Below are positions 19,138-44,692 of a stretch of DNA of 55,542 nucleotides, piece by piece. The notes below the pieces were generated by a model, which saw nothing but the letters and a program-made list of their open reading frames with translations, searched no databases and had not been told where the DNA came from. The position numbers were made by a program, and so were the translations under genes. Source of the DNA: a bacterium. Lineage in GTDB: Bacteria > Patescibacteriota > 4484-211 > GCA-002791395. Location: the NCBI GenBank assembly GCA_027002475.1, contig JALWZS010000018.1:1093-56634 (forward strand), given 5' to 3'. Position 1 is the stretch's first letter; each line of letters begins with the position of its first letter.

Positions 19138-19139
19138 TA

Positions 19140-27051: not shown

Positions 27052-27097
27052 AAAAAAGCCCGGAACCACACTATGTGTGGCCCCAGGCTTCGTTTTT
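27052..27097. terminator. bidirectional terminator at the island's left edge
   Basis: AAAAAAGCC...CCACAC TAT GTGTGG...GGCTT CGTTTTT between convergent genes. Confidence 0.6.
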
Positions 27098-27363
27098 TAG
27101 TCCGCCCCCCGCGCCTGCCGACGCATGCGCCAATCGCGCAGGTCGGCGATTTCTTCCTCGGTGACGTCGGACTCTGTCACCGAGAAGCGGAACAGTCCAT
27201 TTTCCAGATCTCTAATTGAGATGTTATGCTCTCTTCCGAGCTTTTCCATTGCCCGGGAAGCATCCGTGGTCTCAATCGAAGACCCAATCGGCCACCAGAA
27301 AAGGTGGTGGTTGAGAACTCGAACGCTCCGCAGGAGGACGACAGACTGACGCAGATTCGTCAT
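27097..27363 (-). CDS. hypothetical protein (88 aa)
   Basis: GGAGG RBS; ATGA overlap with the upstream gene. Confidence 0.7.
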   Translation of the reverse strand: MTNLRQSVVLLRSVRVLNHHLFWWPIGSSIETTDASRAMEKLGREHNISIRDLENGLFRFSVTESDVTEEEIADLRDWRMRRQARGAD

Positions 27364-27752
27364 GATTCCTCCAGAAGTGGTAGTGAGAGTTGGTGGACAA
27401 AGGTTCTCTGCTGCTGGGGTTGATTGGGCCTGGGTTCAGCGTAGGCCTCTTCAGGCGAGGCTGGAATATTTTTGGGCCTCGGGCCCGAGAGTTTCCAACC
27501 TTGGCGACCGGCTTTGCGCCCGTACTTCATCCGTGCGACAAACCCTGCAGACACCCCGCAGCAGGGGTTATTGTGCAGGATTCGTAGCGCGGTTCGAACG
27601 GACGCCTCACTGACGTGAACGCCAGCATCCAGCAGAATCTGCTGGTGCTCGCCAGCCGTCAACCAGTGAGATCGGTCACCAAACTTGAGGAGAGCCCGAA
27701 GGGCTTTCCAAGACTGCGGTCCCAACCCCGGAGGGACTTGCTGCTTACCCAT
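27360..27752 (-). CDS. putative winged-helix DNA-binding protein
   Basis: LTAGEHQQILLDAGVHVSEASVRTALRIL resembles a Fur/ArgR-type wHTH; GGGGAGG RBS before ATG 27752. Confidence 0.55.
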   Translation of the reverse strand: MGKQQVPPGLGPQSWKALRALLKFGDRSHWLTAGEHQQILLDAGVHVSEASVRTALRILHNNPCCGVSAGFVARMKYGRKAGRQGWKLSGPRPKNIPASPEEAYAEPRPNQPQQQRTFVHQLSLPLLEES

Positions 27753-28098
27753 TTCCGCCTCCCCGCTTTCGGTCAGGTCCGATATGGGCAAGCGTATCAT
27801 TCAGCTGGCTAATGGGCACTCGGAAGAACTGCGCCCGTTTTCCTTTTATCTCCGCGAACGGTGGAATATCCGCGTCAAAGGAAAAATGGGGCAGTTGTAA
27901 GTGCGTTAACGCGCGTTCACCATAGTGATCTAAGCTTCTGGAGGTTTGTCGTACCAGAAATATAATGGCCGAATCCATGGCTTCTGGTGCAACAATTTGG
28001 GAATGGTGAATTCCGCCAACTTGAACTGATACCTTCACCTTATTAGGGTTTTTCCTTGCGAAAGCGATAGAAAGATTAGCTGTTAATTGGGGTTGCAT
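27745..28098 (-). CDS. hypothetical protein
   Basis: AAGGAG RBS before ATG 28098; overlaps the start of the next gene. Confidence 0.7.
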   Translation of the reverse strand: MQPQLTANLSIAFARKNPNKVKVSVQVGGIHHSQIVAPEAMDSAIIFLVRQTSRSLDHYGERALTHLQLPHFSFDADIPPFAEIKGKRAQFFRVPISQLNDTLAHIGPDRKRGGGNG

Positions 28099-28168
28099 AT
28101 TCACTCCTTGTGTTGGTTCGAGTACGGAGAAAGGGGCGTATAACCGTCCCTTTCTCCGTGGTGGTAAC

Positions 28169-28795
28169 CTAGCCGAAGGTAGACTCAGTGATCTTGCGCC
28201 GTAGAAGTATTAACTTGGGGTGAATATCCATCCCTTCATCGAAGTGTCTCTCGTCTCCAATGAAGGTGATCAATCCAAGCACCACTGAACTGCGAAACGC
28301 GAGTCCTAGTACTTCTCGCTCTACTTCTTGCAGTCGTCGGAACACTGTCGGTGCAGTTTCTTTATATGTCCCGTTTTCATAGTGACCGACAACGCAAACT
28401 ACATCACGGTAGACGTGGGGTTGGTACCCCAATGACCTCGCGAAATGTAGTTTTCCTACTGCAGCGTCCTCTCCGATATGACTGATGCTAGTCACTATTT
28501 GCATATCTTTTTTGCAGTGTCTGCAAAATCTTTCAGAGGGGTTCTGCAGGAAGGTATCAGTTGGTAATGGGACTTCACAGATGGCGCACGCAGGCGGTCC
28601 GCCTCGTTGTTGGGCACGCTTAAGGGCGTCCCGTTCGATTCGGCGACGCCTAAGCTGTGCTACAAGGCGTGACTTTGTGTTGATTGCTTCAGCAACCTCC
28701 GCCATGTCTCCAGTTTTGGCTAAGGCAGAGATTTCTTTGAGTAATTGCTGGATATCTGAGTCTACTTCGTTAAGTTTTTGCTGAATAGCGTCCAT
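28169..28795 (-). CDS. DksA/TraR-like C4 zinc-finger protein with C-terminal extension
   Basis: Coiled coil with DMAEVA tip (cf. DxxDxA), then CAIC-x17-CRHC with the conserved Pro (NPSERFC). Confidence 0.65.
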   Translation of the reverse strand: MDAIQQKLNEVDSDIQQLLKEISALAKTGDMAEVAEAINTKSRLVAQLRRRRIERDALKRAQQRGGPPACAICEVPLPTDTFLQNPSERFCRHCKKDMQIVTSISHIGEDAAVGKLHFARSLGYQPHVYRDVVCVVGHYENGTYKETAPTVFRRLQEVEREVLGLAFRSSVVLGLITFIGDERHFDEGMDIHPKLILLRRKITESTFG

Positions 28796-29187
28796 TGTTC
28801 TGTAGGGGGAGTGTGGCAGGGTGGGTGGAAAAAATCAGTAGAACGCGTGCCTGCCCACGCGAACTACTGAAAGGGTTAAAGGTTAGTTCATAAGCACCTC
28901 CTTTTTTGAGTGAATGAGTGAATTAAAATGCCCTTTTATTGATTGGGGTCGCTGCCATTAAACGGTTTATTGAAAATATGTTTAATAGTAACGGCCCCAA
29001 TCAATAGCAACCCAATGGATATTGATATTAGCCTATTTGTTAAAGTCCTAGTGTGTATACATATTTATAACACATCAATCAAGATTTTTAGCTTATCCTA
29101 TCTTGCATCCAGATTTATATGAATACAAAGTAGAGTAATCTAAATAAACTATCCCCCCGAGCCTTGCGACCCGGGAGGATATAACTG

Positions 29188-29322
29188 CTATCGATGTCGC
29201 CTACCCTCCTTAAACCCTCTGCGGGTTTTTTTAAGTCCCCGCGTTAGGCGAGCGGTCTTTTTGGGGGGATGGCGGCGTTTTTTGCCCTGAGTAGGGTAGA
29301 ACAGCTTTCTGACTGGATTCAT
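29188..29322 (-). CDS. unannotated 44-aa Lys/Arg-rich peptide
   Basis: AAGGAGGT RBS; hand translation MNPVRKLFYPTQGKKRRHPPKKTARLTRGLKKTRRGFKEGRRHR*; followed by a hairpin. Confidence 0.6.
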   Translation of the reverse strand: MNPVRKLFYPTQGKKRRHPPKKTARLTRGLKKTRRGFKEGRRHR

Positions 29323-29364
29323 CGTACCTCCTTTTGGGAGTTGTAAGAAGATTGAGAAAGCGAA

Positions 29365-30648
29365 TTATGCCTCTTCGAATTCGTCGATAAGTTCTCCCTC
29401 GACGAATTCGGGAGCGGGTTCAGCTTCTTCGTAGAGGGCTGTGGGCCATTTGCCCGGGTCCTCTACGCTTTGCAGGTCGATGATCTCCCCGGTCTCCGTC
29501 AGATCTTGTATGATCTTAAGGAGTTGACGGACCTGATGGTCGTTTTCAGCCATCAGGATGCCAGCTCGGGCGTCACCTGCACTGGCTACAATTTCGGCAT
29601 AGGCTTTTGCCGCCTGTGCTTCCAGTGCGGCAATGGTTTTTTGCTGTGGGGATTGAGCTGCTCGTCGCGCTAGCTCGATGAGAGAACGCGCGATGTTGTG
29701 AGCGTTTTGAAGCCCAAACGCTCGATCTCGAGCCGTAGGTCCGTACCTAGAGGGAAGGTTAATGTCCCCTATCCCCCAGATCTTATTAAGCAGGCCGTCG
29801 ATGATGCGACCACTAAGAGTCGCATTCTCAAGTCCCACCTTCTCGCCGGGTGAAACCACTTGGATCTCCTTAAATTCGGTTAACGGGCCAAAGCTCATAT
29901 ACCGAGTCCAAGGGATTCGCACGCGTGATTTCCACGCACGGTAGGTGGTGACTACTAGGCGGTCGTGTTTACGATTCCATTCGGTAAAGGCTGTGATGAC
30001 AAGAATCATAAACACTAGAAAAGGGATAACGAAAATGGTGTATTCTGCAAGGTTCGGTAAGGGGAGCCCAAACAGTACCACCACACGCCAAATGAAAAAC
30101 ACAAGTGCGCTAACGCTTAAACCCGCGATAAGCGTTACCTGTGCTACTCTTGGGTAAGTGGTGACCCACGGACTTGCTGTCAATACCATTTCCACTTCTT
30201 CTCCATGAAGGAGCTTGACTCCCTGCTTGACATGAAAGATGGAATCAACGAGCTCCTCCATTTTTTCTACGAGTCCTAACTTGGGTTTATATCTGCCCGA
30301 CACTCGTAGGATTGTGGCTACGATGAGGTTAATGACCTCATACGAGAGCCAAGTCGTAACGAGAACCTGAGCGAATGAGAACACTACTTCGCTTGCAATC
30401 AGGTATTGGAGCTGTGAAAAAGCCTCGCTCGCTCCGGCTGTTCCCGCTGGTAGGACGATGGCCCAGAAGACCGTCTTTATCTTGCCTTCTGGCAAACTCT
30501 TCATCACTAGGATGACTACCAGTACGGCCATCATCTGGGTAAAGATTTGCCAATCCTGAGTGGTTGTACCATTGACCACACTAATTACCCACAGTGCGGT
30601 CAAGATGGTAGATACCAGACTCAGGATGAGTAGGACTGCTTTCCGCAT
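29365..30648 (-). CDS. multi-TM membrane protein with bacterial PH-like domain
   Basis: About six TM segments, then RLVVTTYR...IQV...IWGIGDINL pattern; AAGGAG RBS. Confidence 0.65.
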   Translation of the reverse strand: MRKAVLLILSLVSTILTALWVISVVNGTTTQDWQIFTQMMAVLVVILVMKSLPEGKIKTVFWAIVLPAGTAGASEAFSQLQYLIASEVVFSFAQVLVTTWLSYEVINLIVATILRVSGRYKPKLGLVEKMEELVDSIFHVKQGVKLLHGEEVEMVLTASPWVTTYPRVAQVTLIAGLSVSALVFFIWRVVVLFGLPLPNLAEYTIFVIPFLVFMILVITAFTEWNRKHDRLVVTTYRAWKSRVRIPWTRYMSFGPLTEFKEIQVVSPGEKVGLENATLSGRIIDGLLNKIWGIGDINLPSRYGPTARDRAFGLQNAHNIARSLIELARRAAQSPQQKTIAALEAQAAKAYAEIVASAGDARAGILMAENDHQVRQLLKIIQDLTETGEIIDLQSVEDPGKWPTALYEEAEPAPEFVEGELIDEFEEA

Positions 30649-30764
30649 ATTCTCTCCTTGAGAGTGGTTTTGGTATTAGTAGATAAAGATAATCTTTGGA
30701 ATAATGGCTGTAACCCTTCCATATGGCGCTGCTTGTAGCTTTGCCATAGGAAGGGTTTGTCTTT

Positions 30765-32117
30765 TTATCGTACCCGCAGTTTGACCCAGAAGGGTCTACC
30801 TACAGGTTTGCCACATTCATCATACAGCTGGAATGTGGCTTTTTGTGATCGCCCTTTCTTTTGGGGAACGATCACGGCAGTGACCTTAAAGGTCTTGCCA
30901 GGTTGAGCAGGCTCGACCGTAAAACTCACAAGTTTGAAGTTACCTTTTTCCAGTTTGAGCTGGAAGTCAGCGGTAACTTCATTATCGCCTGTAACCTTAA
31001 AGAGCCAAACTTTTTCAACTTTCTGGCCCTTCTTAACCTTACTCCCATCAGGGAGCGTGACGTCCTTCTGGAACTTCAAGGACGTGCCACACACCTTTGC
31101 AGGAGTGGGGGTAGTGGTTGGGGTCGGCGTGATGATTGGGGTTGAGGTCGCTTCGGGCGTGGGTGTTGCTGTGGGGGGGGGTGTGGGTATCTCCAACGCT
31201 GGCTGGTCGACCAGCCAGGTCGGCATTTGTCCCCCACCAAGCTTCGTTAACTTTTGAGAACTTGGTGAGATGTGCCACACTTGGCACCCTCCATAGCAGA
31301 AGAAACCGTAGTCCTCCACGGCTTCCTCCCCTGCCCGTGTAAATACAATGCCATTGGGTCCCCATTCAGGGTCAATAGCATCGCCCACCTCAGTCAGCCA
31401 CTCGCTTTGGCGCGTCACCAAGTTGAGGGTTTTCAAGTCCCACCCTTTGTCGCTTCTGGCGGCGAAGACAAGCTTCGTGCCATCAGGGGAGAAGCTGGGG
31501 AAAATACCCTCTACCTGTAGGTCTTCGCGAGTGATTTTTCCGTCAAGATTCGCGGTTGCGAGCCAAAGGTCCCACTCACCTTCGCGCTTGCCCTTTTGCG
31601 ACCAGGCGATTTGCCCCGCGGGGCCTAGGGCAGGGGTGATGGCTTGAGTGGCAAGGTTAAGCCGAATGTCATCGGGATAGATGACAATCGTGCTTTTCGG
31701 ATTCTCAAAATTAGAATAATCCGTTTGCACGAATACGGCTTTCCCACCGACTGAGGGGCCTAGAAATTCGCCACCCTCTGGTAGAGTGGCGAGGGGACTT
31801 TTTCCCCGAATATCCACCAAAAGCGTTCCTTGGGGATCTTCGGAGAAGGCAAAGTAAGAAGATGGCCAAGCGAGCCCCATGTCGCTCCATTTGGACTCGA
31901 ACGACTCTTTCTCGCCAGTATGAAGATCTTTTTGGACCAATTGACCGGAGTCGTTGACCCAAAGAACTTTACCGACCGGTTTTTCCTCTGCCACCTTGAC
32001 CGGTGTCGGAGGTGGCGTCGGGGTTAATGCTGGAGGGGGAGGCTGGCTGGCTTTCCAGCCTAGCCATATGGCGAATATGGCTAGCAGGACCAGCCCACCT
32101 ACTTTTGTGAATCTCAT
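30765..32117 (-). CDS. membrane-anchored TolB-like beta-propeller plus NBR1-type Ig-like domain protein
   Basis: PSFSPDGTKLVF (PD40 repeat), PT linkers, FQKDVTLPDG...KVW signature. Confidence 0.75.
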   Translation of the reverse strand: MRFTKVGGLVLLAIFAIWLGWKASQPPPPALTPTPPPTPVKVAEEKPVGKVLWVNDSGQLVQKDLHTGEKESFESKWSDMGLAWPSSYFAFSEDPQGTLLVDIRGKSPLATLPEGGEFLGPSVGGKAVFVQTDYSNFENPKSTIVIYPDDIRLNLATQAITPALGPAGQIAWSQKGKREGEWDLWLATANLDGKITREDLQVEGIFPSFSPDGTKLVFAARSDKGWDLKTLNLVTRQSEWLTEVGDAIDPEWGPNGIVFTRAGEEAVEDYGFFCYGGCQVWHISPSSQKLTKLGGGQMPTWLVDQPALEIPTPPPTATPTPEATSTPIITPTPTTTPTPAKVCGTSLKFQKDVTLPDGSKVKKGQKVEKVWLFKVTGDNEVTADFQLKLEKGNFKLVSFTVEPAQPGKTFKVTAVIVPQKKGRSQKATFQLYDECGKPVGRPFWVKLRVR

Positions 32118-32258
32118 AATTTTTCTCCTTGTGAGAGATGGTGGTTGATTGTTGGGTTGATGAGAATTTGAGTTGTGTTTTTACACATAAACTCATGACA
32201 AATGAAAACGATTTAGTCTTCATCTAGCATGAATTAAGGTGTCCGCGAGGACAGGGGG

Positions 32259-34010
32259 TTACCCCTGCCCTCGCTCGATGGTTAGCTCGTTAACTACATC
32301 GGCAACGCGTTTGCCGTTTACCGATGCTTGACTCAGTGCCTTACCAAGTTCGCTTAACTGGACTTGGGCCTCGAATAAACGAGTGACAAGGCCACTGTTT
32401 AGTTTCCGGATCGATGGATCATACTGCTGTAAAACCCGAAGGTATTGCTGCTTCGAGATTTCGCGATGTGATCCATTTGTCCTTTCCGCGGAAGGCTTGG
32501 ACTCCGCTGGGCGGCGTGTACCGTCACCCCGTCGTCTTTCGGCAAGTTCAGCCTCATCGATTAGAAGCTGTGCGACCCGCCGCATTGCTTTGGGCGTCTC
32601 TAATGCTTTCAGTACAGCGTTAAAGGCATACCCAACGACAAGATCTGTCCCTCGCAGAAGATGCATGAGCCGTCCAGCTTCCTCGGCCCATTGTTCCTCC
32701 TGCTCGCGCTCATGGGTTTTATCTTCTTGAGCCCAGAGCGCTTGCCAGGCCGCAACGGCTTCGTCCCAAGGAACACAAACATGCCCTTGTTCGCGGTTAC
32801 ACTCAGCAAGTTGATGAAGGTATTTTAAAGCCGCCTGGGGGTTTTTCTGCCGCGCGCAGCGCTCGCGGACCTGCTGATGTACCCATAATCGTTCAGGGTC
32901 GTTTTGGAACATCAAATCCGGGCGCCGCGTAGTGGTGTCATTACCCGTCATCGAAAGTGAAGGGTAGCTAACACCTGCGGTTTTGGGGCGATGCATCCAC
33001 ACGGTGGTGGAGTTGGGGCCCCCAACGGCGTCGAATATGTTACTGTTGCTCTTCGACCCCATTAAGGCCGCAAAAATGCCAGTGATGCTGGCGTCGTGGC
33101 CCTCGGGTCCCATGCCGACGGTTTGTACCATCGGTAACATCGCTTCGTTTAATGCCCGCGCAGGGATGCCGCCACTTGTAGCGGCAGACCCCTCGTAATG
33201 TGGGGCATAAACGAACTTTGCCAGCCCTGCAAGCGAATCCACGATAAAGATAACGTGATACCCACTCTCGTACAACCGAATAGCGAGCAACTTCGCTGCG
33301 TCAGCAACGATTCTTGCCGCTAAGTTACGGTTGTTTTGAGTTGGGTTAGCAAGTGATGGAGACTTCGAGTTGCTTAGTCCAACTAAAGCCTGGAAGTGGT
33401 ACAAAGGTACCCTCCCGGCGTATTGGGCAAGCAGCTTTTCGGTCTCTGTAACATCATGCGTTCGTTCTCCTGCTTGGAGGTGAACGAATGCCATCTTTTT
33501 CCAGTTTTGCCCTGCGAGCTCGAGGAGACTTTGTTCAACCTTGAGGATGGTCGTAGTCTTCCCTGAGCCAAAGTCTCCCGCGGACATTACTTGAGACCCA
33601 GGGCCAATTGGGGCAATTGCTCGCAGTGCGCGGGTTGTTGGATCTCGAGTAATATCGATGGGCCATTCCTCACGAGGATAGCCCAAGCGATTCCCCGATG
33701 TCTCGACATGGTCGGCAAACCATGGTCTGTTTTTGACCATTTCGTAGTCTACCAAGCCATTGACGGAGATGATTCCGGCAACCACTTTGCCATGTCGAGT
33801 AAAACTAATTTCATCCATTTCCCGCAGCCCCCACTGTTCTACAAGCTGGGGGGGGATCAATGGGCGTTTCCTCGCTGTTATCGCGAGGTTGGGATGCTCT
33901 TGTAGTGCCTTCTGAGGCACTACAAAGAAGTCGTACCCTTTCCCTTTAGTGGAAAGGATGGGGATTACAAATCCCCTTACGACTTTTTGGTCCTCAGTAG
34001 TTGTTGGCAC
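32259..34010 (-). CDS. divergent Rho-family (Rho/F1/V1-like RecA fold) ATPase with N-terminal OB-like domain and C-terminal extension
   Basis: APIGPGSQ, GDFGSGKTT, GERTHDVTE, GYHVIFIVDSL, SGG, SITGIFAAL, YPSL...TRRPDL are collinear with Rho motifs; GTG start with AAGGAGG. Confidence 0.8.
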   Translation of the reverse strand: MPTTTEDQKVVRGFVIPILSTKGKGYDFFVVPQKALQEHPNLAITARKRPLIPPQLVEQWGLREMDEISFTRHGKVVAGIISVNGLVDYEMVKNRPWFADHVETSGNRLGYPREEWPIDITRDPTTRALRAIAPIGPGSQVMSAGDFGSGKTTTILKVEQSLLELAGQNWKKMAFVHLQAGERTHDVTETEKLLAQYAGRVPLYHFQALVGLSNSKSPSLANPTQNNRNLAARIVADAAKLLAIRLYESGYHVIFIVDSLAGLAKFVYAPHYEGSAATSGGIPARALNEAMLPMVQTVGMGPEGHDASITGIFAALMGSKSNSNIFDAVGGPNSTTVWMHRPKTAGVSYPSLSMTGNDTTTRRPDLMFQNDPERLWVHQQVRERCARQKNPQAALKYLHQLAECNREQGHVCVPWDEAVAAWQALWAQEDKTHEREQEEQWAEEAGRLMHLLRGTDLVVGYAFNAVLKALETPKAMRRVAQLLIDEAELAERRRGDGTRRPAESKPSAERTNGSHREISKQQYLRVLQQYDPSIRKLNSGLVTRLFEAQVQLSELGKALSQASVNGKRVADVVNELTIERGQG

Positions 34011-34145
34011 TACAAATCCTCCTTGAGTGATTTTAACAATTAATAAATTTTTGGCCTTCTTATGGGCCGATTAATAAATTCATTGGTGCATGAATTTATT
34101 AATCGACCGGGAATGCCCATCCTCTATGAGAAGGACGGGCATTCC

Positions 34146-36197
34146 CTATTTAAAGTGGACTGAAACGGTTAAATACTGCCCGTTCCGAGACCACGTTATT
34201 ACTGCGGTCTTGTTTGTCCTGTTTTGCAGGATTATTGGGCTTCCTGGACACACTATCGCTGTATGGAGGTATTTCCTCCACGGCGTTGCATGGTGTCTGG
34301 GGGCTCGTAGCACTGCAATGCCAGGAGTCTTTCTGGCTAAGCTTACGAGCATGGAGGCGTTGTAACAAGTGCCTCCCCCAATATATCCCGCAGCGACTCG
34401 GTAGCCACGCCAACCATTCTTGACATCGCTCATTGTACAGAAGTTCCACTTCTGCCCCGGAGCAATTTGAATGGTTTGGTTGCGCCGCGCCCACAAAAAA
34501 ACGTTAAACTTCTCACCGTCATTTTGTGGCGCGACCCTCCAGCTTCCAAAGTTGTAAGTCACGGAGTAGGTTCCGTTAACATTACTCGTTGGAAGAGAAG
34601 GGGTGGTTGTGGACTGAGACGTTTTTGAGGGGATATTTGCAGGGTACACAATCCTCCCTTTCATAGGACCCTTGTAAGCGCCGGGAGGTACTGTGCAGAA
34701 CTTGCAGTATCTCATAGCGCTTCTTGGGAAGACTCTGCTTGGCGGAATCCTACCCCCATGGAAGATTTCCATATGGGTGTGGGGCCAGCTAGTAATGCCT
34801 GTCCTCCCAAGGTGCCCTACTGGCGTACTGGCTGTTACGCGTTGACCAGCACGCACGAGAACCCGTCCGTCTTTTCTAGGGACGTTCATTCGACGGACGA
34901 TTGTTCTATTGTTTTCATTCGCCAGATGACAAAGGTAGGCTTTATACCCGCCATCCAAACGAATGATTACCCAGCACCCGTACCCACCAGCGTTGTTGCA
35001 TCCTGCATACTGCACAACGCCATTGCCTGGAGAGTACACAACTGCTCCTATTGGAGCAGAGATGTCCCAGGCTAGTACACTACCTCTCCTTGGGTTTGTA
35101 TGATCTTTCTCGTCTGATGAAAGAACATTCGAGTAAAGAGGCAGATACAGGTACTGACCTATAAACAGGTTGTAGGAACGAACCCTACCTGTCGTCGGAC
35201 CAGCAGGTGGTTGGCTGGGATTGGTGTTGTAGATTTCTTCGGCTTGCCGGTAGAACTCGGCATCATCAATTTCTGGAGCAAGTCCGAGGATCTTTAGGAA
35301 TCCGTAGGCTAGGTTTTTCCACCAGCTATTATTGATCTGTTCAGACCATGTAACAGCTCCCAAACTACTGATCCCATCGGCATCACCAAGGTATTGTCGG
35401 TACTCGTTCGCCGACTCTACCATTCGGGTGATCCAAGGCTTATGGTGATTCCATCTCCATAAAGCCTTGATTTGTTGGTCGGGGCGCGCTGTCTTATCCC
35501 ATCCGATTCTGGCCAGCTCAGCAGCCATAAGGTGCATGGCTGTATCTGGATTCCAGAGATCGAAAGGTGGTTCAACCACGTCCCTGTTCATCCATGCCGT
35601 GTACGGCATGAATTGCGAACAGCCGAGGGCTCCCGCCCCCCGAGATCCTTTTACCGAATTAAGTGAATAATCCGGTCCGATGTATTTGGATGAAAATGAA
35701 TTAGGATCACTCCTAATGTCATACTTCTTCCACATCGGCAGGAAGAAATCTCGGAGTTTAGCAAGGTCGTTATTGAAACCTCGCTTCCGGAGCTCCTCAG
35801 CGGCAGAAGCCGTTCCTGCATTCGAGCAGTTCCCGGACTCACTTCGAGTAAGCCGGATGTAAATCGCTCGGTCGCAGGATTTTAGCTTTTTAGGGTCATC
35901 ACGGAATTGCTCTTTACACCAGACCTCCGTGGCGGTTGCCCGCTGTAGGAGATCAGGGGGGATATTGAGCTTTTCCACAATTTGTTCTTCCCTACTGCTT
36001 AAGTCGTAGCTCGCTGTAATAGCGAGCGGAGAGGTCTGGAGATCAAGGAAATCAATGACTCCCTCGTTCCAGACGCTCTCCGATACCATGTCCCGCATGT
36101 TGTAGAGTACAGCGGCACTGGCACCAAGAGAAACTACCACTATAGCTACGATTAAGGCTAGGAGGATTAATGTGTATTTAGTGACCTGTCCTAACAC
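34146..36197 (-). CDS. cell-wall hydrolase: lytic transglycosylase + M23 peptidase + VanW-like domain
   Basis: N-terminal TM; ESG...GALGCSQFMPYT; WDISAPIGAVVYSPGNG...YLCHL...WPHTHME; GGGTCYNASML. Confidence 0.8.
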   Translation of the reverse strand: MLGQVTKYTLILLALIVAIVVVSLGASAAVLYNMRDMVSESVWNEGVIDFLDLQTSPLAITASYDLSSREEQIVEKLNIPPDLLQRATATEVWCKEQFRDDPKKLKSCDRAIYIRLTRSESGNCSNAGTASAAEELRKRGFNNDLAKLRDFFLPMWKKYDIRSDPNSFSSKYIGPDYSLNSVKGSRGAGALGCSQFMPYTAWMNRDVVEPPFDLWNPDTAMHLMAAELARIGWDKTARPDQQIKALWRWNHHKPWITRMVESANEYRQYLGDADGISSLGAVTWSEQINNSWWKNLAYGFLKILGLAPEIDDAEFYRQAEEIYNTNPSQPPAGPTTGRVRSYNLFIGQYLYLPLYSNVLSSDEKDHTNPRRGSVLAWDISAPIGAVVYSPGNGVVQYAGCNNAGGYGCWVIIRLDGGYKAYLCHLANENNRTIVRRMNVPRKDGRVLVRAGQRVTASTPVGHLGRTGITSWPHTHMEIFHGGRIPPSRVFPRSAMRYCKFCTVPPGAYKGPMKGRIVYPANIPSKTSQSTTTPSLPTSNVNGTYSVTYNFGSWRVAPQNDGEKFNVFLWARRNQTIQIAPGQKWNFCTMSDVKNGWRGYRVAAGYIGGGTCYNASMLVSLARKTPGIAVLRAPRHHATPWRKYLHTAIVCPGSPIILQNRTNKTAVITWSRNGQYLTVSVHFK

Positions 36198-36208
36198 ATT
36201 ATCCTCCT

Positions 36209-38176
36209 TTATCGTTTGATAAGAGAGCTACTCGTGCCGAAGAGTTCGACAATTTTTTCTGGGATATCCGGGGAAAACTCAAACTCCCCTCGAGTAGCGA
36301 ACGGGACTCCAGGGCGTGCAGTGGGGATAAACCCAATCGCTTTTTTGAACCCCGACCCGAGTTCCAGGCGGATACCAAAAGCGATGGAATCCCATGAACC
36401 ACTGGGCCAAGAGTTGAAACTTTCGGCCGAGTGCTCGATGACAATCGTCATCAGCCCCAGTTTGCGACCTGAGACGATCTGAACCTTGATCTGATTTCTC
36501 AGATCGGTACCGACCCGCTCGGACAATTGTCCGTACTGAGTTGTGGGTACGGCAGGTGCAGCTGAGACATCATCGTGGATGATGCTCAGTGGCTGTCCTT
36601 TGAACAGTTCATCCCATGCCGCGAGTAGCTGCTTGAGCCACTCGTTGGCATACGCGGCGAACCGCGTCGGACAACTGCCTTGCGACGCTTGTAACACCGC
36701 AGGCAGTCCAATTGGACGACCATATTTACGCCACTCTTTCTTGAGATTGGCCCAATAGATAGCAATTTCCCGTTTGTCTTGAGCGATTAGGCGCTCAAGT
36801 TCGTGGGCGTTCGAGGCGCCAGGGAGATCGAATCTTATGGGTTGCCCCGTCGATGTGGCTTTTACGTAGTCGTGAATTCTCTCAGGGTTCTGAGAGTAAA
36901 TCACCGTTACTACGTGTTCGGCTGCGTGCTGAGCTGCAAGCGTTTGGGCCATTGTAGACTTGCCGGTGCCCGACTCACCAACGAGTACGACTGATGTCAT
37001 CTCGTCTTGGCGAACAAGGACAGGCCAGCCTGACTTGTGGCCCAAGCACATGTTTCCACTTAGATCTGAAGGATCACGCGGAAGGGCGGTGAATAGGTCT
37101 AGGACTTCTATTCCCTCGATAGGGGCCGTATTCCACGGAAGTGGAGCAGGTCCACCAGGGACAAATGTCTGGAGGGCTTCACGGAGTCCAAACCCGTCCT
37201 CTTCCCAGACGCGAATTTGCTTGGTCTTAGCGACCTTTGCGAGTTCTGCGCCTATATTGTCCAGTGCTTTGGGATCAGTGCTCCCAAAGCGGACTAGTAT
37301 GGTTGCCCATGAGCGGGATGATGTATCTCTCTCAACATGGACCAAGAGATCCACCGGGAGTGCGTCGATGGCATTTGCAAACGCCTCTACACTACGAGGC
37401 AACACTCGCCAGATGGCAAAGTGTTTTTCTCCCAACGTATAGAAATTATGGGAGAAGCTAATTGCCTCAGGAGCTCCTGCGAACAAGACGAAATCTGGAT
37501 TTGGCTGTGTACCGTTGAGGTTTCGACCAAGCATGGTATCCCAAACAAGGGAGGGAAGCCTGGCGAAATCAACTGTGCGAGTGTCCCCAACAGCATCCTG
37601 ACCGCTTTCAGGGATACCGAACCCAGCTGGAGCCCATATTACGAGCTCCTTGCTGGTGAATGGGCGGATGCCTTCCCGCAGAGCGGGTGGAACGGTCCAT
37701 TCACTAAGGGCTTGTAGGACCTGAGCTGTGAGTTGTTCATTGGTTCGCGCTGGGCTCAGTTGCTCTAGAATCGGTCCCAGGGGGACCGGAACCGAGCGGA
37801 TAAACATCGTAAACCATGGCACTCCAGCCAAAAAGAAACTCTCGACGGAGTGTGGCTTACGATACACGGCAGCAGCTCGCCAGCCGCCGCTAAATCGCCC
37901 TGTGGGCTTGATGAGGGCTGTGTTACCGCCCTCGACCCGTGCTGTTTCAATCCCTAGGGTACTTTGGATAGCATGTACCCTTGCTCGAAACGCACGCTCT
38001 TTATCATACAAAGCTAATGCTGAGGGACTAAAATGCTCCTCAACAGCGGGCAGCTTATCGCCCGCTTTGCTCTGTACGATGGCATAGCCCTTGGCTACCT
38101 TTTCGGTTTTGGGCAGGCAGCTTAAAACCGCCTCTACCGCCTTTCGAATAGGCGGTCCCAAGCCTGGTGATGTCAA
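36209..38176 (-). CDS. VirB4/HerA-like P-loop ATPase
   Basis: C-terminal-half Walker A (VGESGTGKS), Walker B (IIHDD), GRKLGL..IVIEH; TTG start with GGAGG. The family call relies partly on gene context. Confidence 0.6.
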   Translation of the reverse strand: MTSPGLGPPIRKAVEAVLSCLPKTEKVAKGYAIVQSKAGDKLPAVEEHFSPSALALYDKERAFRARVHAIQSTLGIETARVEGGNTALIKPTGRFSGGWRAAAVYRKPHSVESFFLAGVPWFTMFIRSVPVPLGPILEQLSPARTNEQLTAQVLQALSEWTVPPALREGIRPFTSKELVIWAPAGFGIPESGQDAVGDTRTVDFARLPSLVWDTMLGRNLNGTQPNPDFVLFAGAPEAISFSHNFYTLGEKHFAIWRVLPRSVEAFANAIDALPVDLLVHVERDTSSRSWATILVRFGSTDPKALDNIGAELAKVAKTKQIRVWEEDGFGLREALQTFVPGGPAPLPWNTAPIEGIEVLDLFTALPRDPSDLSGNMCLGHKSGWPVLVRQDEMTSVVLVGESGTGKSTMAQTLAAQHAAEHVVTVIYSQNPERIHDYVKATSTGQPIRFDLPGASNAHELERLIAQDKREIAIYWANLKKEWRKYGRPIGLPAVLQASQGSCPTRFAAYANEWLKQLLAAWDELFKGQPLSIIHDDVSAAPAVPTTQYGQLSERVGTDLRNQIKVQIVSGRKLGLMTIVIEHSAESFNSWPSGSWDSIAFGIRLELGSGFKKAIGFIPTARPGVPFATRGEFEFSPDIPEKIVELFGTSSSLIKR

Positions 38177-38304
38177 AGGAATCCTCCGTTTGAGTGGTTG
38201 TTGATTGATTGTGTGTTATTGAGATGTTAATCTCATATCTACTTATAACTTAATTTAGTTCTAAATAGATATGAAACAGGGACGACGGATCGCCGTCCCT
38301 GTTG

Positions 38305-38745
38305 TTATTCGGTTGTAGAATCTTCCGCATCACTTCGAGTGATGCTCGTGGAAGAATCTTTTTTTGTTTTTGGTAGCCTAGCCCAGAACCATGACAGGGT
38401 GGGTTGCAGTCTAGCCCAGAGCCACGACAGAGCCTTGCGCCAGTTAGGCGCTTCTGCTCTGTCGAAATGCACTCCAGTCCAGCCTCTTTTGTAGGCAAAT
38501 CTCGCCCAGAGGTTCATGACCTCACCATACGCCAAGTACACGGCGTAGAAGGTCAGAAAGAACCCTACGGCGTACATTACCGCCGTGAAGAGCCGGGTGC
38601 TGAGCATAAACGTGCTCAGAGCAACTACAAACCCCACCATAGCAACATACAGCCACTTGACGTGGATGTATGTGTCCTCGCTACCAATTTGAACGACTTT
38701 TGTGGGGTCGTGCCAAAAGCGCACTAACTGTTTCCAGGGGTTCAT
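38305..38745 (-). CDS. two-TM protein, VirB3/PrgI/TcpE-like by position
   Basis: Two adjacent TM helices; lies directly upstream of the ATPase; ATGA-coupled to the previous gene. Confidence 0.5.
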   Translation of the reverse strand: MNPWKQLVRFWHDPTKVVQIGSEDTYIHVKWLYVAMVGFVVALSTFMLSTRLFTAVMYAVGFFLTFYAVYLAYGEVMNLWARFAYKRGWTGVHFDRAEAPNWRKALSWLWARLQPTLSWFWARLPKTKKDSSTSITRSDAEDSTTE

Positions 38746-40145
38746 GCGTCACCCCCTTTAATGTCCGGCGCATTGGTGGGAGGAGGGAAGACTATTTGCC
38801 CTTCGTGGGCAATGGTTCCCCCATTGTCGTCCACGATCTTCTTTGACGCCCTCTTAATCTCGGGGTCGTCAGGGGATACGTAGACGATAGTTCCGTCGTC
38901 GCGTCGCTCCCGTACAAGCTGTACCGCGTCGTCGACCGCCGCTTTCACCACTGGTGCGGCTTCAGGCGCGCCAGCAGCAGTAGTTGCCACAGCGGCAACG
39001 TTGCCTGCTTGTTTAAGAGCGCCTTCTCCAACCGCCTTAACCTTTGATGGTTTATCTTTACCTGTGTTGGGCGCTTGGGGTGGTGGAGTAGCTTGAGCGA
39101 CGTCTCCGTTTGGGTCAGTGGGACCAGGTAGCCGCTTTTTAGTTGGCGCTGGGGTAACCACCACTGGTCCTCCTCCTGGCGGAGGCGGTGGGACTGGGCG
39201 CCATGTTGCGTCCACCCAGCCGTCGTCGCTCTCTCCGCCGCCGTTGCCCGAGCTTTGTGGCGCTCCAGTGGTTTGAGAGCTCTCAGTGCTAGTGTCTGGC
39301 TCACTCCGGAACTTATTAATTAGCCATGCAGCGGTGAGCTCGTCACCGATGCCCGCATCTCCGAAGAAACCGGAGATTTTCCCCTTGATATCTACGTTTT
39401 GGCCGATCATACCTAAGCCAAAGTAGATGATCAAAGGGCTTAGCATCGTGACTCCCGCTAAGAACCCAATCACCATGAGGTAAATCGAGTTCATGTTGGC
39501 GAGCGTTGAGCCCACCACGCCTTCTGGTTTAAACCCTGCCATCATGTCGACCGCTACTTTGTACAGGCGACCGAACATGGCAAAGGTAAAATACCCGCCC
39601 ATCCAGGCAACAAACGGGCGAGCGGAACCAGAGAAGACAACCCACCACATGACAATTGGGAAAGATAGGATGATTACAATTTCCCACCCGTAGTGCCATG
39701 CGATGAGTGTTTTGGTGGCGGCTACAAAGGCAAAAGCCGTTGCTGGATTTGCGTCGGCTGTGAAATTGCCAATAACAAACCCTAACGATTTTCGCACATA
39801 GTTGAAAGTCAGGTCATCAGGCCAGAGTTGCAGACCCATTTTATGAAATTCAACTATAATCATGGAGCCGAACGCGACAGCTGAGTCTAGCCAGACCCAC
39901 TTTATAACCTCAGCCCATTTTCCGTTCGGTAGGGCTTTGGCTATAAAGATCAGGCTGAAAACGATTACGGGAATGGCTAGAACTGTTAAGTGCTCGATAA
40001 GCGATCCCTTAAGCGGGACGAATGCCGCGCTTTTAAACGGAACTGCTTTTTCAAGCAATTTGCCGACCTGGTCGTCGGCGCTGCAGCTTGACAAGATCAC
40101 TGGCAGCAGTCCGACGACCAGAAGTCGCAGGCGTTGTACTCTCAT
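38742..40145 (-). CDS. polytopic membrane protein with G/P-rich tail, VirB6/TrbL-like by architecture
   Basis: Lipobox-like ILSSC; about 6 TM segments; long low-complexity C-terminus. Confidence 0.55.
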   Translation of the reverse strand: MRVQRLRLLVVGLLPVILSSCSADDQVGKLLEKAVPFKSAAFVPLKGSLIEHLTVLAIPVIVFSLIFIAKALPNGKWAEVIKWVWLDSAVAFGSMIIVEFHKMGLQLWPDDLTFNYVRKSLGFVIGNFTADANPATAFAFVAATKTLIAWHYGWEIVIILSFPIVMWWVVFSGSARPFVAWMGGYFTFAMFGRLYKVAVDMMAGFKPEGVVGSTLANMNSIYLMVIGFLAGVTMLSPLIIYFGLGMIGQNVDIKGKISGFFGDAGIGDELTAAWLINKFRSEPDTSTESSQTTGAPQSSGNGGGESDDGWVDATWRPVPPPPPGGGPVVVTPAPTKKRLPGPTDPNGDVAQATPPPQAPNTGKDKPSKVKAVGEGALKQAGNVAAVATTAAGAPEAAPVVKAAVDDAVQLVRERRDDGTIVYVSPDDPEIKRASKKIVDDNGGTIAHEGQIVFPPPTNAPDIKGGDA

Positions 40146-40384
40146 AGGGCTTTAATTACCTGATTAGCCTTCTGAAAGAGACTCTGCCAAATCTTGCCCA
40201 TGTAGGGTGCAAGCCAGCCAGATTTGGGATGGCCCAGCAGTTCGGGAACTGCGATGACCAGGAGCGAAACGAAGAAGAGCCCGATGATCAAATTTTGCCA
40301 ATCCATCTTGAGTCCTCTTTTGATGAGGACAATAAGTAAGATGATGGCAATGATCAGTAGTGCAACGTTAGTCAAAACGCTCAT
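40142..40384 (-). CDS. small two-TM pilin (VirB2)-like protein (80 aa)
   Basis: AAGGAG RBS before ATG 40384; two hydrophobic helices separated by KRGLKMD. Confidence 0.5.
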   Translation of the reverse strand: MSVLTNVALLIIAIILLIVLIKRGLKMDWQNLIIGLFFVSLLVIAVPELLGHPKSGWLAPYMGKIWQSLFQKANQVIKAL

Positions 40385-40706
40385 TGTTTTTCTCCTTTTT
40401 AAGAGAGAGTGAGGGTGAAAAGAAAAGAGTTTTGGCCCGATTGATTGTCGGGTTGTCTTACCCGGTGACTGTTTCGTCATCAGGTAAGGCAACCCTCCCA
40501 GAACGTGTCTGAGAAAGGCTGCTTGGGCTTTTTAGGTAAAAGCCTACACCCTAACAATCAACCACTCAAGGATTTTGGTTATCTTGATTGATTGTTAACG
40601 TGCTCATTGCTAAGCTCGATAACAATGAAAACCTCCGCTATGGGCGGTTTTGTTTTGTCATCGAGAGCTGTTGTGAGGACGGCGGTTGCCCGTCGCCCTC
40701 ACTAGC

Positions 40707-41423
40707 TTACTTCTTATTCTTTTTTTTGCCTTTTTTGCCCTTGCCTTTACGGGCTCGGGCGAAGGCGTGGGCGAAGGCTGTGCCGTTGCGCTCGTTGGGG
40801 ACGATTTGCCGAATCGCTCGGAGGCGACCGGGTCCAATCCCCTTGATTCTCAGGAGCTGGTAGTCGGTGGCGTTGAGAATCCACCCGACAGTTTTTCCTG
40901 CGGAATCGAGGACTTTGCCAATCTCACCTTCGATAAGGGTGCTGGCGGGGAGTTCGGCGGCCTTTTTGGATTCTTCCCAAGCCTGGGCAACCGCCCTGTT
41001 GAGTAATTGAGCTTGGGTGAGGTCGGGTGTGGTGAGGGGCAGAATCTCTGCCAAAAGACCTTCGGCCTTTGAGAAGGCTTTGGCGAAGGCAGGGACGGCA
41101 GCAATGACTGCGGCATGGTGCGGCCTGTCCTGCAAGTCGAGGAGATTCTTAAAGGCCTTATTGACCAGGTTGTCAATGTAGGCCTTTTCTGCTTGTGCAA
41201 GCGTAGACTTGAGGACTGCGTTCTTGGCTTGCAGCGCCTCTGCAATCTTCATTGCGTTGGCGCTGTCGGCCTTGCGCAGGTTGCCGGCTGTTGCTCGGGC
41301 ATCGTGCAAGGCCCTCTTCAGTTGTGGGTTCTCCTGCACCTTGCGCGGGAGATTGGCGACCTTTTTTTGGAGAGCCTTGAAGGCTCTCAAGGTCGCGATG
41401 GGTGAAAGGTTAGAAGACGTCAT
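40707..41423 (-). CDS. helical protein with C-terminal helix-hairpin-helix (RNAP alphaCTD/ComEA-like) and basic tail
   Basis: AGKTVGWILNATDYQLLRIKGIGPGRLRAI; AAGGAG RBS before ATG 41423. Confidence 0.7.
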   Translation of the reverse strand: MTSSNLSPIATLRAFKALQKKVANLPRKVQENPQLKRALHDARATAGNLRKADSANAMKIAEALQAKNAVLKSTLAQAEKAYIDNLVNKAFKNLLDLQDRPHHAAVIAAVPAFAKAFSKAEGLLAEILPLTTPDLTQAQLLNRAVAQAWEESKKAAELPASTLIEGEIGKVLDSAGKTVGWILNATDYQLLRIKGIGPGRLRAIRQIVPNERNGTAFAHAFARARKGKGKKGKKKNKK

Positions 41424-41604
41424 GGTCTTACTCCTTGAGTGTTTTGAAAAGATGGATGGTTGATATGCCCTTTCATTTTTTAAGGGGTAGAGGAGAAACA
41501 AGACTACATGGCTGCCCTGCACTTTAGTAAAGTCATGCCCCTTCTCTACCCCTTACTATTGTGAGGTGCTACACATCTTATAGCAGATGTGTTGTTGTGC
41601 GTTA

Positions 41605-41633
41605 CATATAGCATGTGTAACACGATTTGTCAA
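41605..41633 (-). promoter_or_regulatory. sigma70-type promoter driving the island, overlapped by palindromes
   Basis: TTGACA (41633-41628), 17-nt spacer ending TGC, TATATG (41610-41605). Confidence 0.6.
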
Positions 41634-41756
41634 TTGTTAGACTAATTAAAAGTGGGTATTTTGTGAGTTGTGAAAATGTGTTACCTACTTATTCGTTATA
41701 TATAATCGCAAAAACAGCATAAGGCAGTAGGGTTATATTCTATGGGGTACTTCCTG

Positions 41757-41868
41757 GCAAAAAAGACCGGGAACTGCTGTGTTCTCGTTCCGTTACTCCC
41801 CCTGAAACGGATGTAGAACTATGCAGCTCCCGGTTTCCCCAATACTGCTCCCCTAAGCAAGGAGGTAC
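41757..41868 (-). ncRNA. candidate small structured RNA
   Basis: TG-n-TATAAT at 41875-41880; long interrupted stem 41766-41834; ends in a U-tract. Confidence 0.45.
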
Positions 41869-41950
41869 GAACGAATTATAACATGGAATTAGTTGATGCT
41901 AATAAAAATACATCACCGTAATGAATAAATCTTAATAATGTTAAGTAAAT

Positions 41951-41985
41951 AAAAAAGGCGAAAGGAAGTGGGACTCCCTTTCGCC
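41951..41985 (-). terminator. intrinsic terminator
   Basis: GGCGAAAGGGAGT CCC ACTTCCTTTCGCC TTTTTT directly after the 77-aa gene. Confidence 0.8.
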
Positions 41986-42315: not shown

Positions 42316-42570
42316 GAGGGGGTGGAGAGTTGAAGAGTTGAAGAGCGTCGTTGCGAGCGATAGCGCGGCAATCTCGAATGGGTAGATTGCCACGGAATTT
42401 ACATAATAAATTCCTCGCAGTGACAAGAAAACGGCAATGGTTCCGTCATTGCGAGAAGCGGAAGCGACGAAGCAATCTTCTGTCATGTTCGAGACTGCCG
42501 CGTTGGTTAGCACCAACTCGCAGTGACGAAAATGTTGCTTCGCCCCGATATCTATCGAGATTGCAATGAT
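42316..42570. repeat. short 8-mer array plus REP/RPE-like palindrome cluster at the island's right edge
   Basis: GAGAGTTG AAGAGTTG followed by GTCGTTGCGAG...GCAATCTC, GTCATTGCGAG...GAAGCAATCT and further units. Confidence 0.85.
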
Positions 42571-42665
42571 GCATGTTTCATGTGCTTAAGAAAACGATAG
42601 ACTCTTGCGTGATGATGAGTTAGTAGTAAAATATTTAATGCAAGTGAAGTGGCATTTAATTAATC

Positions 42666-43892: not shown

Positions 43893-44188
43893 GTTTGAGA
43901 GTTAAAGGGTTGCAGAGTTGGAGGGTGGGAGTGTTTAAGCTTTGGAGTATTTCAGTACATTTTGAACGTTGGGCGCATACTTTTGTACTCTAGTGGATGA
44001 GAGTGTTTATCGGGGATTCTGAGATGATTAGAGAATTACAGGGTTTGAGAGTTGTAGGGTTTAAGAATTTCAGTGTTAAAGGTTAATAGCTTTGAGTCTT
44101 AAGCATTTACTCCAGTACTCCAGTGTACGGGAGTGCTTATGAGCGTGGGAGAGTTGTAGAGTTGAAGGGTTGTAGAGTTAGAGAGTTA
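43893..44188. repeat. 8-mer (NAGRGTTR) tandem arrays flanking an ~80-bp core
   Basis: GAGAGTTG TAGAGTTG AAGGGTTG TAGAGTTA GAGAGTTA; core 43951-44030 recurs inverted at 50330-50405. Confidence 0.85.
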
Positions 44189-44692
44189 TCGCGCTATTTC
44201 GCGGTATTTTTTTATTAAGCCGGTGACTCGTTTTCTACTTTCTAAAGTTAAATCAAGCAGTTTGTCAAAATCCTCTTGTTTATCAGCAAACATTGATAGA
44301 TCTCGTGCGGTTAGTAATATGTCTTGATATACAAACGTTGCATCACGACTTGCTTCGTAAAACTCTAACTTCTTTTTGGGGTCTTTGCGGTTGTAACCTT
44401 GCACTAATGTCTTGCTAACTTCATGAGCTGCGTCAACTAACCTATCACGCATATCTCCAGTATTTGGGTCGAAAATGCTGGTTAATCGATGTGTAGTTAC
44501 AACTAACTCATGAGCTGATTGCCATACACCAAAGTCCTCAAACCGCTTAGAAGATGAACGACGTTGCTCTTTTTGCCTTTGGTTATTGCCATCGTCAGAT
44601 ACTTGTTGTTGCGGTTGTGCCTGCTCTTCAGAAGTCTCGTCTTTAATGGTTACTTCTTGAGATTCTTCTTGTGGTTGAACGTCGTCTTGCAT
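44186..44692 (-). CDS. four-helix-bundle protein (23S rRNA IVP/Avd-like family), divergent
   Basis: RFEDFGVWQSAHELV...LT..F...GYNRK...FYEASR; the usual NIAEG motif is replaced by TLVQG; acidic/Gln-rich N-terminal extension. Confidence 0.8.
   Translation of the reverse strand: MQDDVQPQEESQEVTIKDETSEEQAQPQQQVSDDGNNQRQKEQRRSSSKRFEDFGVWQSAHELVVTTHRLTSIFDPNTGDMRDRLVDAAHEVSKTLVQGYNRKDPKKKLEFYEASRDATFVYQDILLTARDLSMFADKQEDFDKLLDLTLESRKRVTGLIKKYREIAR

Follow-up and report, generated by a model that had tools for sequence, protein, structure and literature searches.

What does a protein built like the transcription terminator Rho do among genes for membrane proteins and a cell-wall hydrolase, in a bacterium that already has a Rho of its own? 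The question is raised by contig JALWZS010000018.1 of the patescibacterial assembly GCA_027002475.1, of which we analysed positions 1,093 to 56,634 (55,542 nucleotides, hereafter the window; positions are counted from its first letter). The gene concerned, at 32259..34010, had been described in an initial annotation of the window as a highly divergent Rho, with ATPase motifs resembling those of A/V-type ATPases and a degree of drift suggestive of a changed function. We report here that it is an extra gene belonging to a separate and rare clade of Rho-fold ATPases, and not the cell's transcription terminator. With confidence evenly balanced between belief and doubt, we propose that its product is the cytoplasmic ring motor, or substrate-feeding ATPase, of an envelope-spanning transfer apparatus, in a role like that of the type IV coupling ATPases.

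Sequence and predicted fold of the Rho-like protein

The open reading frame (ORF) is real. A strong Shine-Dalgarno ribosome-binding site (AAGGAGGA) lies 7 nt 5' of its GTG start, and its translation contains the motifs first attributed to it, namely KGYDFF, IPPQLVEQWGLREMDEI, APIG, GDFGSGKT, GERTHDVTE, GYHV and TRRPDL. The gene and its predicted domains are arranged as follows.

32259..34010, minus strand: Rho-like ring-ATPase gene, 583 amino acids (aa), GTG start, stop codon at 32259-32261
33711..34010, minus strand: N-terminal beta-rich domain, residues 1-100, superposing on the OB domain of Rho (model from residue 9 on Rho from residue 49)
32742..33710, minus strand: RecA-type ATPase core, residues 101-423, with a Pfam ATP-synt_ab match below cut-off and a structural match to the Rho motor domain
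32262..32741, minus strand: helical extension at the C-terminus, residues 424-583, whose end is a small conserved module and which is confined to the long-form subclade described below

Sequence searches with the protein led to Rho at scores far below those of the curated family. Three Rho models were matched in the NCBIfam scan at 26.0-39.8 bits, each under its cut-off (TIGR00767, 26.0 versus 509.45; NF006886, 38.4 versus 315; NF041509, 39.8 versus 628), and no other family appeared at E<=0.01. The Pfam scan returned ATP-synt_ab alone, at 20.4 bits and under the cut-off of 29.5, and Rho accounted for the top nine of the 13 matches at E<=1 in a sequence search of the PDB (best E 7.5e-7). In the phage and plasmid collections searched, the matches were canonical rho only, at 21-25% identity, and the viral fold library BFVD yielded generic RecA folds only (TMq <=0.27).

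An AlphaFold model built from 84 aligned sequences reached a pLDDT of 88.4 and a pTM of 0.79 (an earlier model from two sequences, pLDDT 37.6, was unusable). Foldseek searches with this model ranked Rho chains first (3ice_D, E 8.1e-18), and VIA-align superposed model residues 9-423 on residues 49-416 of Rho 5jjl_F with a Z score of 38.7 and a root-mean-square deviation of 2.3 A over 352 residues. Together with the family matches, which were exclusively to Rho and all at low bit scores, this superposition bears out the description of the protein as a highly divergent Rho. In the predicted model the OB-fold domain lies directly N-terminal to the motor, as in Rho. It carries the motif W60-G-L-R-x-x-D66, in which W60 and D66 are nearly invariant among 28 family members, and has a weak MazE/AbrB-like Pfam match (E 0.088).

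The same superposition agrees with two further points of the initial annotation, the absence of the N-terminal helical domain of Rho and the addition of a C-terminal part. No Pfam Rho_N match was found, the model begins at the OB domain, and residues 424-583, about 160 in all, extend beyond the region shared with Rho. The missing helical domain is nevertheless no special trait of this protein. The canonical Rho of the host is itself a short form of 397 aa, with a short, non-helical-looking leader and no separate helical domain evident in the alignment, and Rho_N is not strictly defining for Rho, because short-form Rho proteins lack it too. The C-terminal extension is modelled as helices at residues 415-452, 459-495 and 520-579; it was left uncovered by the structure searches and gave no credible Pfam match (best E 0.0094, 16 bits) and no Atlas match. 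The idea that its terminal module is a relocated Rho_N domain was rejected (hhalign probability 0.15%).

The initial annotation also placed the ATPase motifs closer to subunit A of A/V-type ATPases than to Rho, from which the protein could be read as a Rho/A-V-ATPase intermediate, a relic related to the rotary ATPases. Both proteins are of the ring-ATPase superfamily, the Walker A motif begins with glycine as in GPFGSGKT, and the GER..D motif is superficially alike. However, no V-type ATPase model of NCBIfam was matched at E<=0.01, and the V/A-type chains listed by VIA-align reached Z scores of only 24.8-24.9 and F1 chains about 25, far under the 38.7 of Rho; the highest-scoring non-Rho chain was an archaeal ATP synthase subunit (5bn3_B, Z 25.8). 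The family groups with Rho when F1 subunits serve as the outgroup, and its Walker A motif grades from GxxGxGKT in the subclade of the window protein to a Rho-like APPxxGKT in the other subclade. Because of this gradation, we attribute the leading glycine to drift inside the family rather than to V-type ancestry, and we give the intermediate next to no credence.

Catalytic and RNA-binding residues

Individual residues were compared by aligning the protein with E. coli Rho and with the host's own Rho, E. coli numbering being taken from the aligned sequence. The motor residues were located at the following positions, with conservation assessed in an alignment of 28 members.

33555..33578, minus strand: Walker A motif GDFGSGKT, residues 145-152, with G150 and K151 invariant
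33462..33467, minus strand: E182-R183, equivalent to Glu211-Arg212 of Rho, with R183 invariant and E182 nearly so
33237..33239, minus strand: Walker B aspartate D258, equivalent to D265 of Rho by alignment to the family and to E. coli Rho
32925..32927, minus strand: R362, aligned to the arginine finger R366 of Rho and invariant

The Lys and Thr of Walker A and the equivalents of Glu211-Arg212, Asp265 and Arg366 are kept in the protein and across the 28 members. We take these residues of Rho to be its catalytic pair, its Walker B aspartate and its arginine finger, respectively. Their retention argues for an active, oligomeric ATPase, and with no transmembrane (TM) segment predicted, the protein is most simply viewed as a catalytically competent, soluble ring ATPase of Rho fold.

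The residues with which Rho holds RNA have fared differently. Phe62, Phe64 and Arg66 of the GFGF region and Glu108-Arg109-Tyr110, which we take to form the primary RNA-binding site, are kept neither in the Rho-like protein nor in its clade. Among the residues presumed to lie in the secondary-site loops, Lys326 of the R-loop has been exchanged, for Gly in most cases, in the clade members aligned, and Thr286 of the Q-loop is retained only in the subclade of the window protein. By the curated definition the protein does not count as a Rho: it lacks the primary-site residues and Lys326 and scores under every family cut-off.

In summary, the protein shares with Rho an OB-like N-terminal domain followed by a RecA-type motor, with Walker A and B, the Glu-Arg pair and the arginine finger in place, but it is only about 20% identical, starts its Walker A with G instead of A, has lost the RNA-gripping residues named above, bears an extra helical C-terminus of 160 residues and is encoded on an island within a membrane-apparatus operon. 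The initial annotation had taken such drift as a sign of changed function. A changed function relative to Rho does appear likely, because the primary RNA-binding residues and Lys326 are not kept and a canonical rho is present elsewhere in the host; what has drifted, however, is not the host's own Rho, as the gene belongs to a separate clade and lies on an island.

A separate clade beside the host's own Rho

The host genome (1.09 Mb in 48 contigs, 93% complete) encodes its canonical Rho on another contig (L001, 1417-2610), and this protein scores 574.8 bits against the cut-off of 509.45. Beyond a weak relation to it, the Rho-like protein has no paralogue in the host genome.

Relatives are also scarce outside the host. 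A word-indexed search of 5.8 billion proteins returned one, at 34% identity, and an exhaustive profile search of 1.84 billion representatives gave 585 matches at E<=1e-3, 15 of them at E<=1e-30. Among the best 44 database matches after the query, 35 were weak on Rho models (27.7-115.3 bits, under the 315-bit cut-off), eight were true Rho proteins (367-548 bits, NF006886) and one matched no family. A search for loci with alignment A1 gave no match in genome, viral or metagenome contigs, and single-protein queries returned one locus each.

A careful tree was computed with IQ-TREE from 63 rows and 389 columns, with F1 alpha and beta subunits as the outgroup and the long-branch rows G088, G152 and P0040 left out. 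The 39 family rows in it are united in a single clade (bootstrap/SH-aLRT 100/99), and in a quick tree of all 66 rows the 40 family rows are likewise united, with a support of 99. Both trees, which cover Rho-like proteins, canonical Rho and F1 subunits, separate the family from canonical Rho. Canonical Rho forms one group in the careful tree at only 81/84 support (78% of bootstrap trees), and the clade is either a sister of all Rho or an offshoot from within Rho. Two subclades can be told apart: a long form (24 rows, median 572 aa), which has the C-terminal extension and contains the window protein, and a short form without it (16 rows, median 445 aa). The clade members that have a name come from Patescibacteria only.

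Some further observations concern Rho-type and related ATPases in these organisms. Two relatives from the host's family hold still more divergent Rho-like ORFs (L030, 9871-11454, 527 aa; L031, 2155-4452, 765 aa), which fall outside the clade and are not accompanied by the gene cassette described below. The ORF of L030 lies in an 8-kb island with a GC (guanine plus cytosine) fraction of 0.54-0.61, together with a gene for a DksA/TraR-like zinc-finger protein. A Rho-type match of any kind at E<=1e-15 was seen in only 86 of 401 sampled genomes of the phylum. In the host genome itself, F1-type alpha/beta-like ATPase subunits are encoded as two separate pairs, spread over two contigs (L002-L005).

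A conserved cassette of membrane-apparatus genes

Three genes of the window recur beside the Rho-like gene in other genomes.

36209..38176, minus strand: P-loop NTPase partner, soluble, 655 aa, with Walker A near residue 400
34146..36197, minus strand: membrane-anchored cell-wall hydrolase partner, 683 aa, with a predicted N-terminal TM segment
29365..30648, minus strand: membrane-protein partner, predicted to cross the membrane five times, with its C-terminal region in the cytoplasm

Thirteen loci were compared: the window; L027-L029, L051, L052 and L057-L061, drawn from genomes of five further genera; L047, which adds a sixth; and the metagenome contig L046. L056, laid out like L047, was counted together with it, and L046, L051 and L052 are cut off by contig or locus ends, such loci being among those in which a partner is missed. 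In 13 of 13 loci the Rho-like gene stands beside at least one of the three partners, the P-loop ATPase being found in 10, the M23 hydrolase in 10 and the multi-pass membrane protein in 11. The membrane-protein partner lies directly upstream of the Rho-like gene in nine loci. The full order, polytopic protein, small TM protein, ATPase, hydrolase, membrane protein and Rho-like protein, is seen with every gene labelled by homology in L061; the upstream genes of L028 and L029 are as in L061, L057 has a homologue of the polytopic protein, and at that place L058 and L059 show ORFs of comparable size without a label.

The membrane-protein partner carries near its C-terminus the motif DLxxxEDPGLWDR, set in variable acidic sequence (alignment A6), which looks like a docking peptide. 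The hydrolase partner matches Peptidase_M23 at 48.6 bits (cut-off 28.7), with weak SLT (SLT_2) and VanW matches. For the P-loop ATPase partner, generic P-loop matches only were obtained in Pfam scans of nine orthologues, in NCBIfam and in PDB profile searches with four and with nine orthologues; its FtsK_SpoIIIE (15-18 bits) and T4SS-DNA_transf (16.9 bits) matches are sub-threshold, a nearest position to FtsK/SpoIIIE clusters by language-model features (0.93) is a lead only, and a homologue search with it returned itself only.

The location of these genes in the chromosome shows a pattern of its own. In four genomes the Rho-like islands or cassettes lie near nucleotide-excision-repair genes, in the arrangements uvrA-island-uvrB (L027/L033), LexA-uvrB-cassette-uvrA-uvrC (L047) and enolase-VTT-island-uvrB (L030), and in the window as uvrA, uvrB, glycosyltransferases, island, HtrA and enolase (window 15675-21599 and 27055-41985). 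The short-form loci do not show this pattern. The proximity could be due to an insertion hot spot or to a functional link with DNA damage.

The operon and its island in the window

In the window the Rho-like gene is the seventh of nine genes that precede an internal terminator. They encode, in order, an HhH-like helical protein, a small TM protein, a polytopic protein, a small TM protein, the P-loop ATPase, the M23 hydrolase, the Rho-like protein, a PD40/Ig protein and the five-TM protein; a DksA/TraR-like gene and three small ORFs follow the terminator. The remaining features of this region are listed below.

27055..41985, all genes on the minus strand: GC-rich island, GC about 0.45-0.53 versus about 0.36-0.44 in the flanks
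41957-41985 and 27055-27091: terminator-like hairpins bounding the island, from the promoter/terminator scan
41875-41902: promoter-like site at the upstream end of the island
29150-29181: internal terminator, from the promoter/terminator scan
40707..41522, minus strand: leading gene of the operon, for a helical protein that has an HhH-like motif (LLRIKGIGPGRLRAI) and carries a Lys-rich tail, its start likely near 41422
40142..40492, minus strand: small protein with two predicted TM segments, 116-aa ORF whose true start is probably internal
38742..40145, minus strand: polytopic membrane protein by TM prediction, with a lipoprotein-type N-terminus and a Pro-rich tail, without a Pfam match
38305..38745, minus strand: small protein with two predicted TM segments, 146 aa
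30765..32117, minus strand: exported protein with a PD40 beta-propeller repeat and an Ig-like domain, N-terminal TM/signal segment
28169..28795, minus strand: DksA/TraR-like C4 zinc-finger protein (CxxC...CxxC; NCBIfam DksA_like, E 3.8e-4)

Housekeeping genes flank the island: uvrA, uvrB and glycosyltransferase genes at one end, HtrA, enolase, PPDK and ruvAB at the opposite end. The HhH-like motif of the first gene was located by regular expression, and that gene has no Pfam match. A Cys at a lipobox-like position (LxxC, C21) is invariant in the polytopic protein and its positional counterparts in eight other loci (alignment A8), which suggests a lipid-anchored N-terminus; beyond the polytopic protein itself, a homologue search yielded a single, unannotated orthologue. 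Pfam matches of the exported protein are N_BRCA1_IG (42.6 bits) and PD40 (25.7 bits). Altogether, six genes of the operon code for membrane or exported proteins, the cell-wall hydrolase among them.

Two NTPases on a foreign island could also belong to an anti-phage defence system, or to some other cytoplasmic NTPase system unrelated to transport, and both score about 18 bits against the PADLOC model mad8. These matches are limited to the P-loop region, though, none of the 16 proteins scanned has another PADLOC match at E<=0.001, and the six membrane or exported products, including a wall hydrolase, fit such a system poorly; we consider it highly improbable.

The zinc-finger gene brings in another alternative, in which the Rho-like ring would be a transcription factor encoded by the element: it would act on RNA, terminating or remodelling transcription, either the island's or the host's, perhaps in concert with the DksA/TraR-like protein, and would have a regulatory part instead of a mechanical one. 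In favour of this, no other fold or family comes nearly as close as Rho, the equivalent of Q-loop Thr286 survives in the subclade of the window protein, and zinc-finger or DksA-like genes accompany the long-form genes of the window, L046 and L047 and are present in the L030 island as well. Nevertheless, no zinc-finger gene was seen at the short-form loci, the clade as a whole has lost the primary RNA-binding residues and Lys326, the host already possesses a canonical Rho, and the direct adjacency to a membrane-protein gene in nine loci is difficult to account for in regulatory terms. We regard this alternative as doubtful.

Other parts of the window yielded observations that stand by themselves. 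Two hairpins separate the hydrolase stop from the Rho-like start, one GC-rich (34109-34146) and the other an AT-rich, near-perfect palindrome (34065-34108), and may act as an internal attenuator or operator ahead of the Rho-like gene. An Rfam search of the window gave zero matches and a tRNA gene search found none. Adjacent giant ORFs of 951 and 2703 aa occupy 669-3524 and 3528-11639, with no Pfam match at E<=1e-4, and an ORF between HtrA and enolase (44186-44692) matches the 23S rRNA-intervening-sequence-protein domain at 32.8 bits, just under the cut-off of 33.8.

Foreign origin and selection

The region stands out by a GC fraction about 0.1 higher in the window, L027, L057 and L060; the unrelated L030 island is GC-rich as well. 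Matches at the level of the clade are patchy: they occur in four of 401 genomes across the phylum, in one of 13 in the host's class, and in 10 of 134 in another class, including five of the seven genomes of one genus. Composition and distribution together suggest that the operon was acquired horizontally and sits on a foreign, potentially mobile island.

The Rho-like gene appears to have been maintained for its protein product. Of the 21 differences listed for 32741-32832 between it and a variant strain from a different study, 15 are at wobble positions. Within one genus, its nonsynonymous divergence (dN) is 0.26-0.32 and its synonymous divergence (dS) is saturated in most comparisons, for which reason no dN/dS ratio is given; identity within the genus is 60-66%, higher than for the ATPase (42-56%) and the membrane protein (40-50%). 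Judged from these comparisons, the gene is under purifying selection.

Beside the island, contig depth (all organisms summed) jumps several-fold at 42428-43755, in the HtrA-type protease gene, in all three sequencing runs, with many loose ends at 43390-43435. The jump probably reflects a conserved segment common to other community members.

Comparison with known secretion and transfer systems

In its architecture, the operon recalls a minimal monoderm conjugation or type IV secretion machinery, with which it would share a second ATPase, a wall hydrolase, polytopic and small membrane proteins and a location on a foreign island. The proposed hexameric motor at the cytoplasmic entrance of a channel has its parallel in the type IV coupling proteins (VirD4/TraG, TcpA). 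These, however, are members of the FtsK/HerA group with a membrane anchor of their own, whereas the Rho-like protein is soluble and of Rho fold. Scans of the island ORFs with Pfam, NCBIfam and PHROG detected no VirB4, VirD4, VirB6, relaxase or FtsK/HerA coupling family, a very divergent form being possible. As described in the main text of PMC12102498, the type IV secretion clusters of Patescibacteria are VirB4-based, and most of them lack a relaxase, so that functions beyond conjugation are possible; the term Rho is absent from that main text, and its supplements could list such neighbours. No VirB4-type Pfam or NCBIfam match was found here, and the apparatus probably differs from the VirB4-type system as presented there.

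FliI and SctN offer the other parallel. Both are homo-oligomeric members of the F1/Rho superfamily of ATPases and are docked at an export apparatus in the membrane, which is the kind of role proposed here. The Rho-like ring might be a protein-export ATPase that unfolds proteins and feeds them to an apparatus secreting effectors instead of nucleic acid. FliI/SctN are indeed the second-best families for several clade members, albeit at 25-47 bits against cut-offs of 380-750, and the missing relaxase, here as in most of the patescibacterial clusters covered by the main text of PMC12102498, would suit such a function. The window protein itself, on the other hand, matches no FliI/SctN model of NCBIfam at E<=0.01, its model scores Z 24.8 on the type III ATPase 5zt1_A, the sole such entry listed, against 38.7 on Rho, and its N-terminal domain superposes on the OB domain of Rho. 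The other 11 operon ORFs scanned gave no type III or flagellar match, and the apparatus is probably not one of the VirB4-type clusters of PMC12102498. Protein export by a FliI/SctN-like ATPase thus seems unlikely to us.

Proposed role of the Rho-like protein

The assignment of the Rho-like protein as motor of an envelope-spanning apparatus is proposed because an intact Rho-type motor without a TM segment of its own is encoded next to a membrane protein with a conserved tail motif, along with a second ATPase and a wall hydrolase. The residence of the gene in a membrane-machine operon on a foreign island favours transport over termination. According to this proposal, six Rho-like subunits would assemble as a ring on the cytoplasmic face of the apparatus; their arginine fingers would reach across the subunit interfaces, and ATP hydrolysis would thread a linear polymer through the central pore toward the channel. 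Single-stranded nucleic acid would be the likeliest polymer, owing to the Rho-type OB-like domain and the HhH-type protein of the operon. The parts of this scheme that concern docking to the membrane proteins, what substrate is carried and which way it moves are all putative. Its most specific form, in which a Rho-family hexamer takes the place of an FtsK/HerA coupling ATPase, docks via the adjacent membrane protein and pumps single-stranded nucleic acid, is a tentative elaboration that we think rather improbable.

Several results weigh against the proposal. No component of the operon is assignable to a type IV secretion family, and the FtsK/SpoIIIE label of the second ATPase comes from language-model and sub-threshold matches. 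The residues with which Rho grips nucleic acid are not kept, which leaves nucleic-acid binding conjectural, and the ring, a hexamer by presumption, is deduced from the conserved arginine finger and homology. The short-form subclade, although it lacks the C-terminal extension, occupies the same cassette. Scans of the island ORFs revealed no relaxase, integrase or replication gene, no long flanking direct repeats were found, and neither an excised form nor, in the contigs of three sequencing runs, a joint that removes the island was seen; mobility and DNA transfer are for this reason put forward only as suggestions. A complex prediction for the Rho-like protein and the cytoplasmic residues 226-427 of the membrane protein scored 0.02 against a mark of 0.32 and counts neither way.

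Significance

Rho is among the most conserved bacterial proteins, and to our knowledge it is known for a single job, the termination of transcription. The present family is a whole clade of Rho-fold ATPases that has kept the motor and discarded the RNA-gripping residues and, in its long form, has gained a new C-terminus; we found no description of such a Rho-like protein in the literature searched. The notion that rotary ATPases arose from a helicase that became a translocase was reportedly first proposed in a 2007 review by Mulkidjanian and colleagues. A scenario with a membrane-bound helicase-to-translocase stage as the forerunner of rotary ATPases is cited in a passage of PMC5706428. A link between such a membrane-bound, Rho-like translocase and the protein described here is possible, given that the constant neighbour of the latter is a membrane protein to which it putatively binds. 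In the most specific form of the proposal, the protein would be a surviving instance of that stage. If the proposed role holds true, the protein would be the first Rho-type engine for envelope transport, it would define a transfer or secretion system of a new kind in ultra-small bacteria dependent on other cells, and it would provide an experimental handle on the idea that rotary ATPases came from a membrane-docked helicase.

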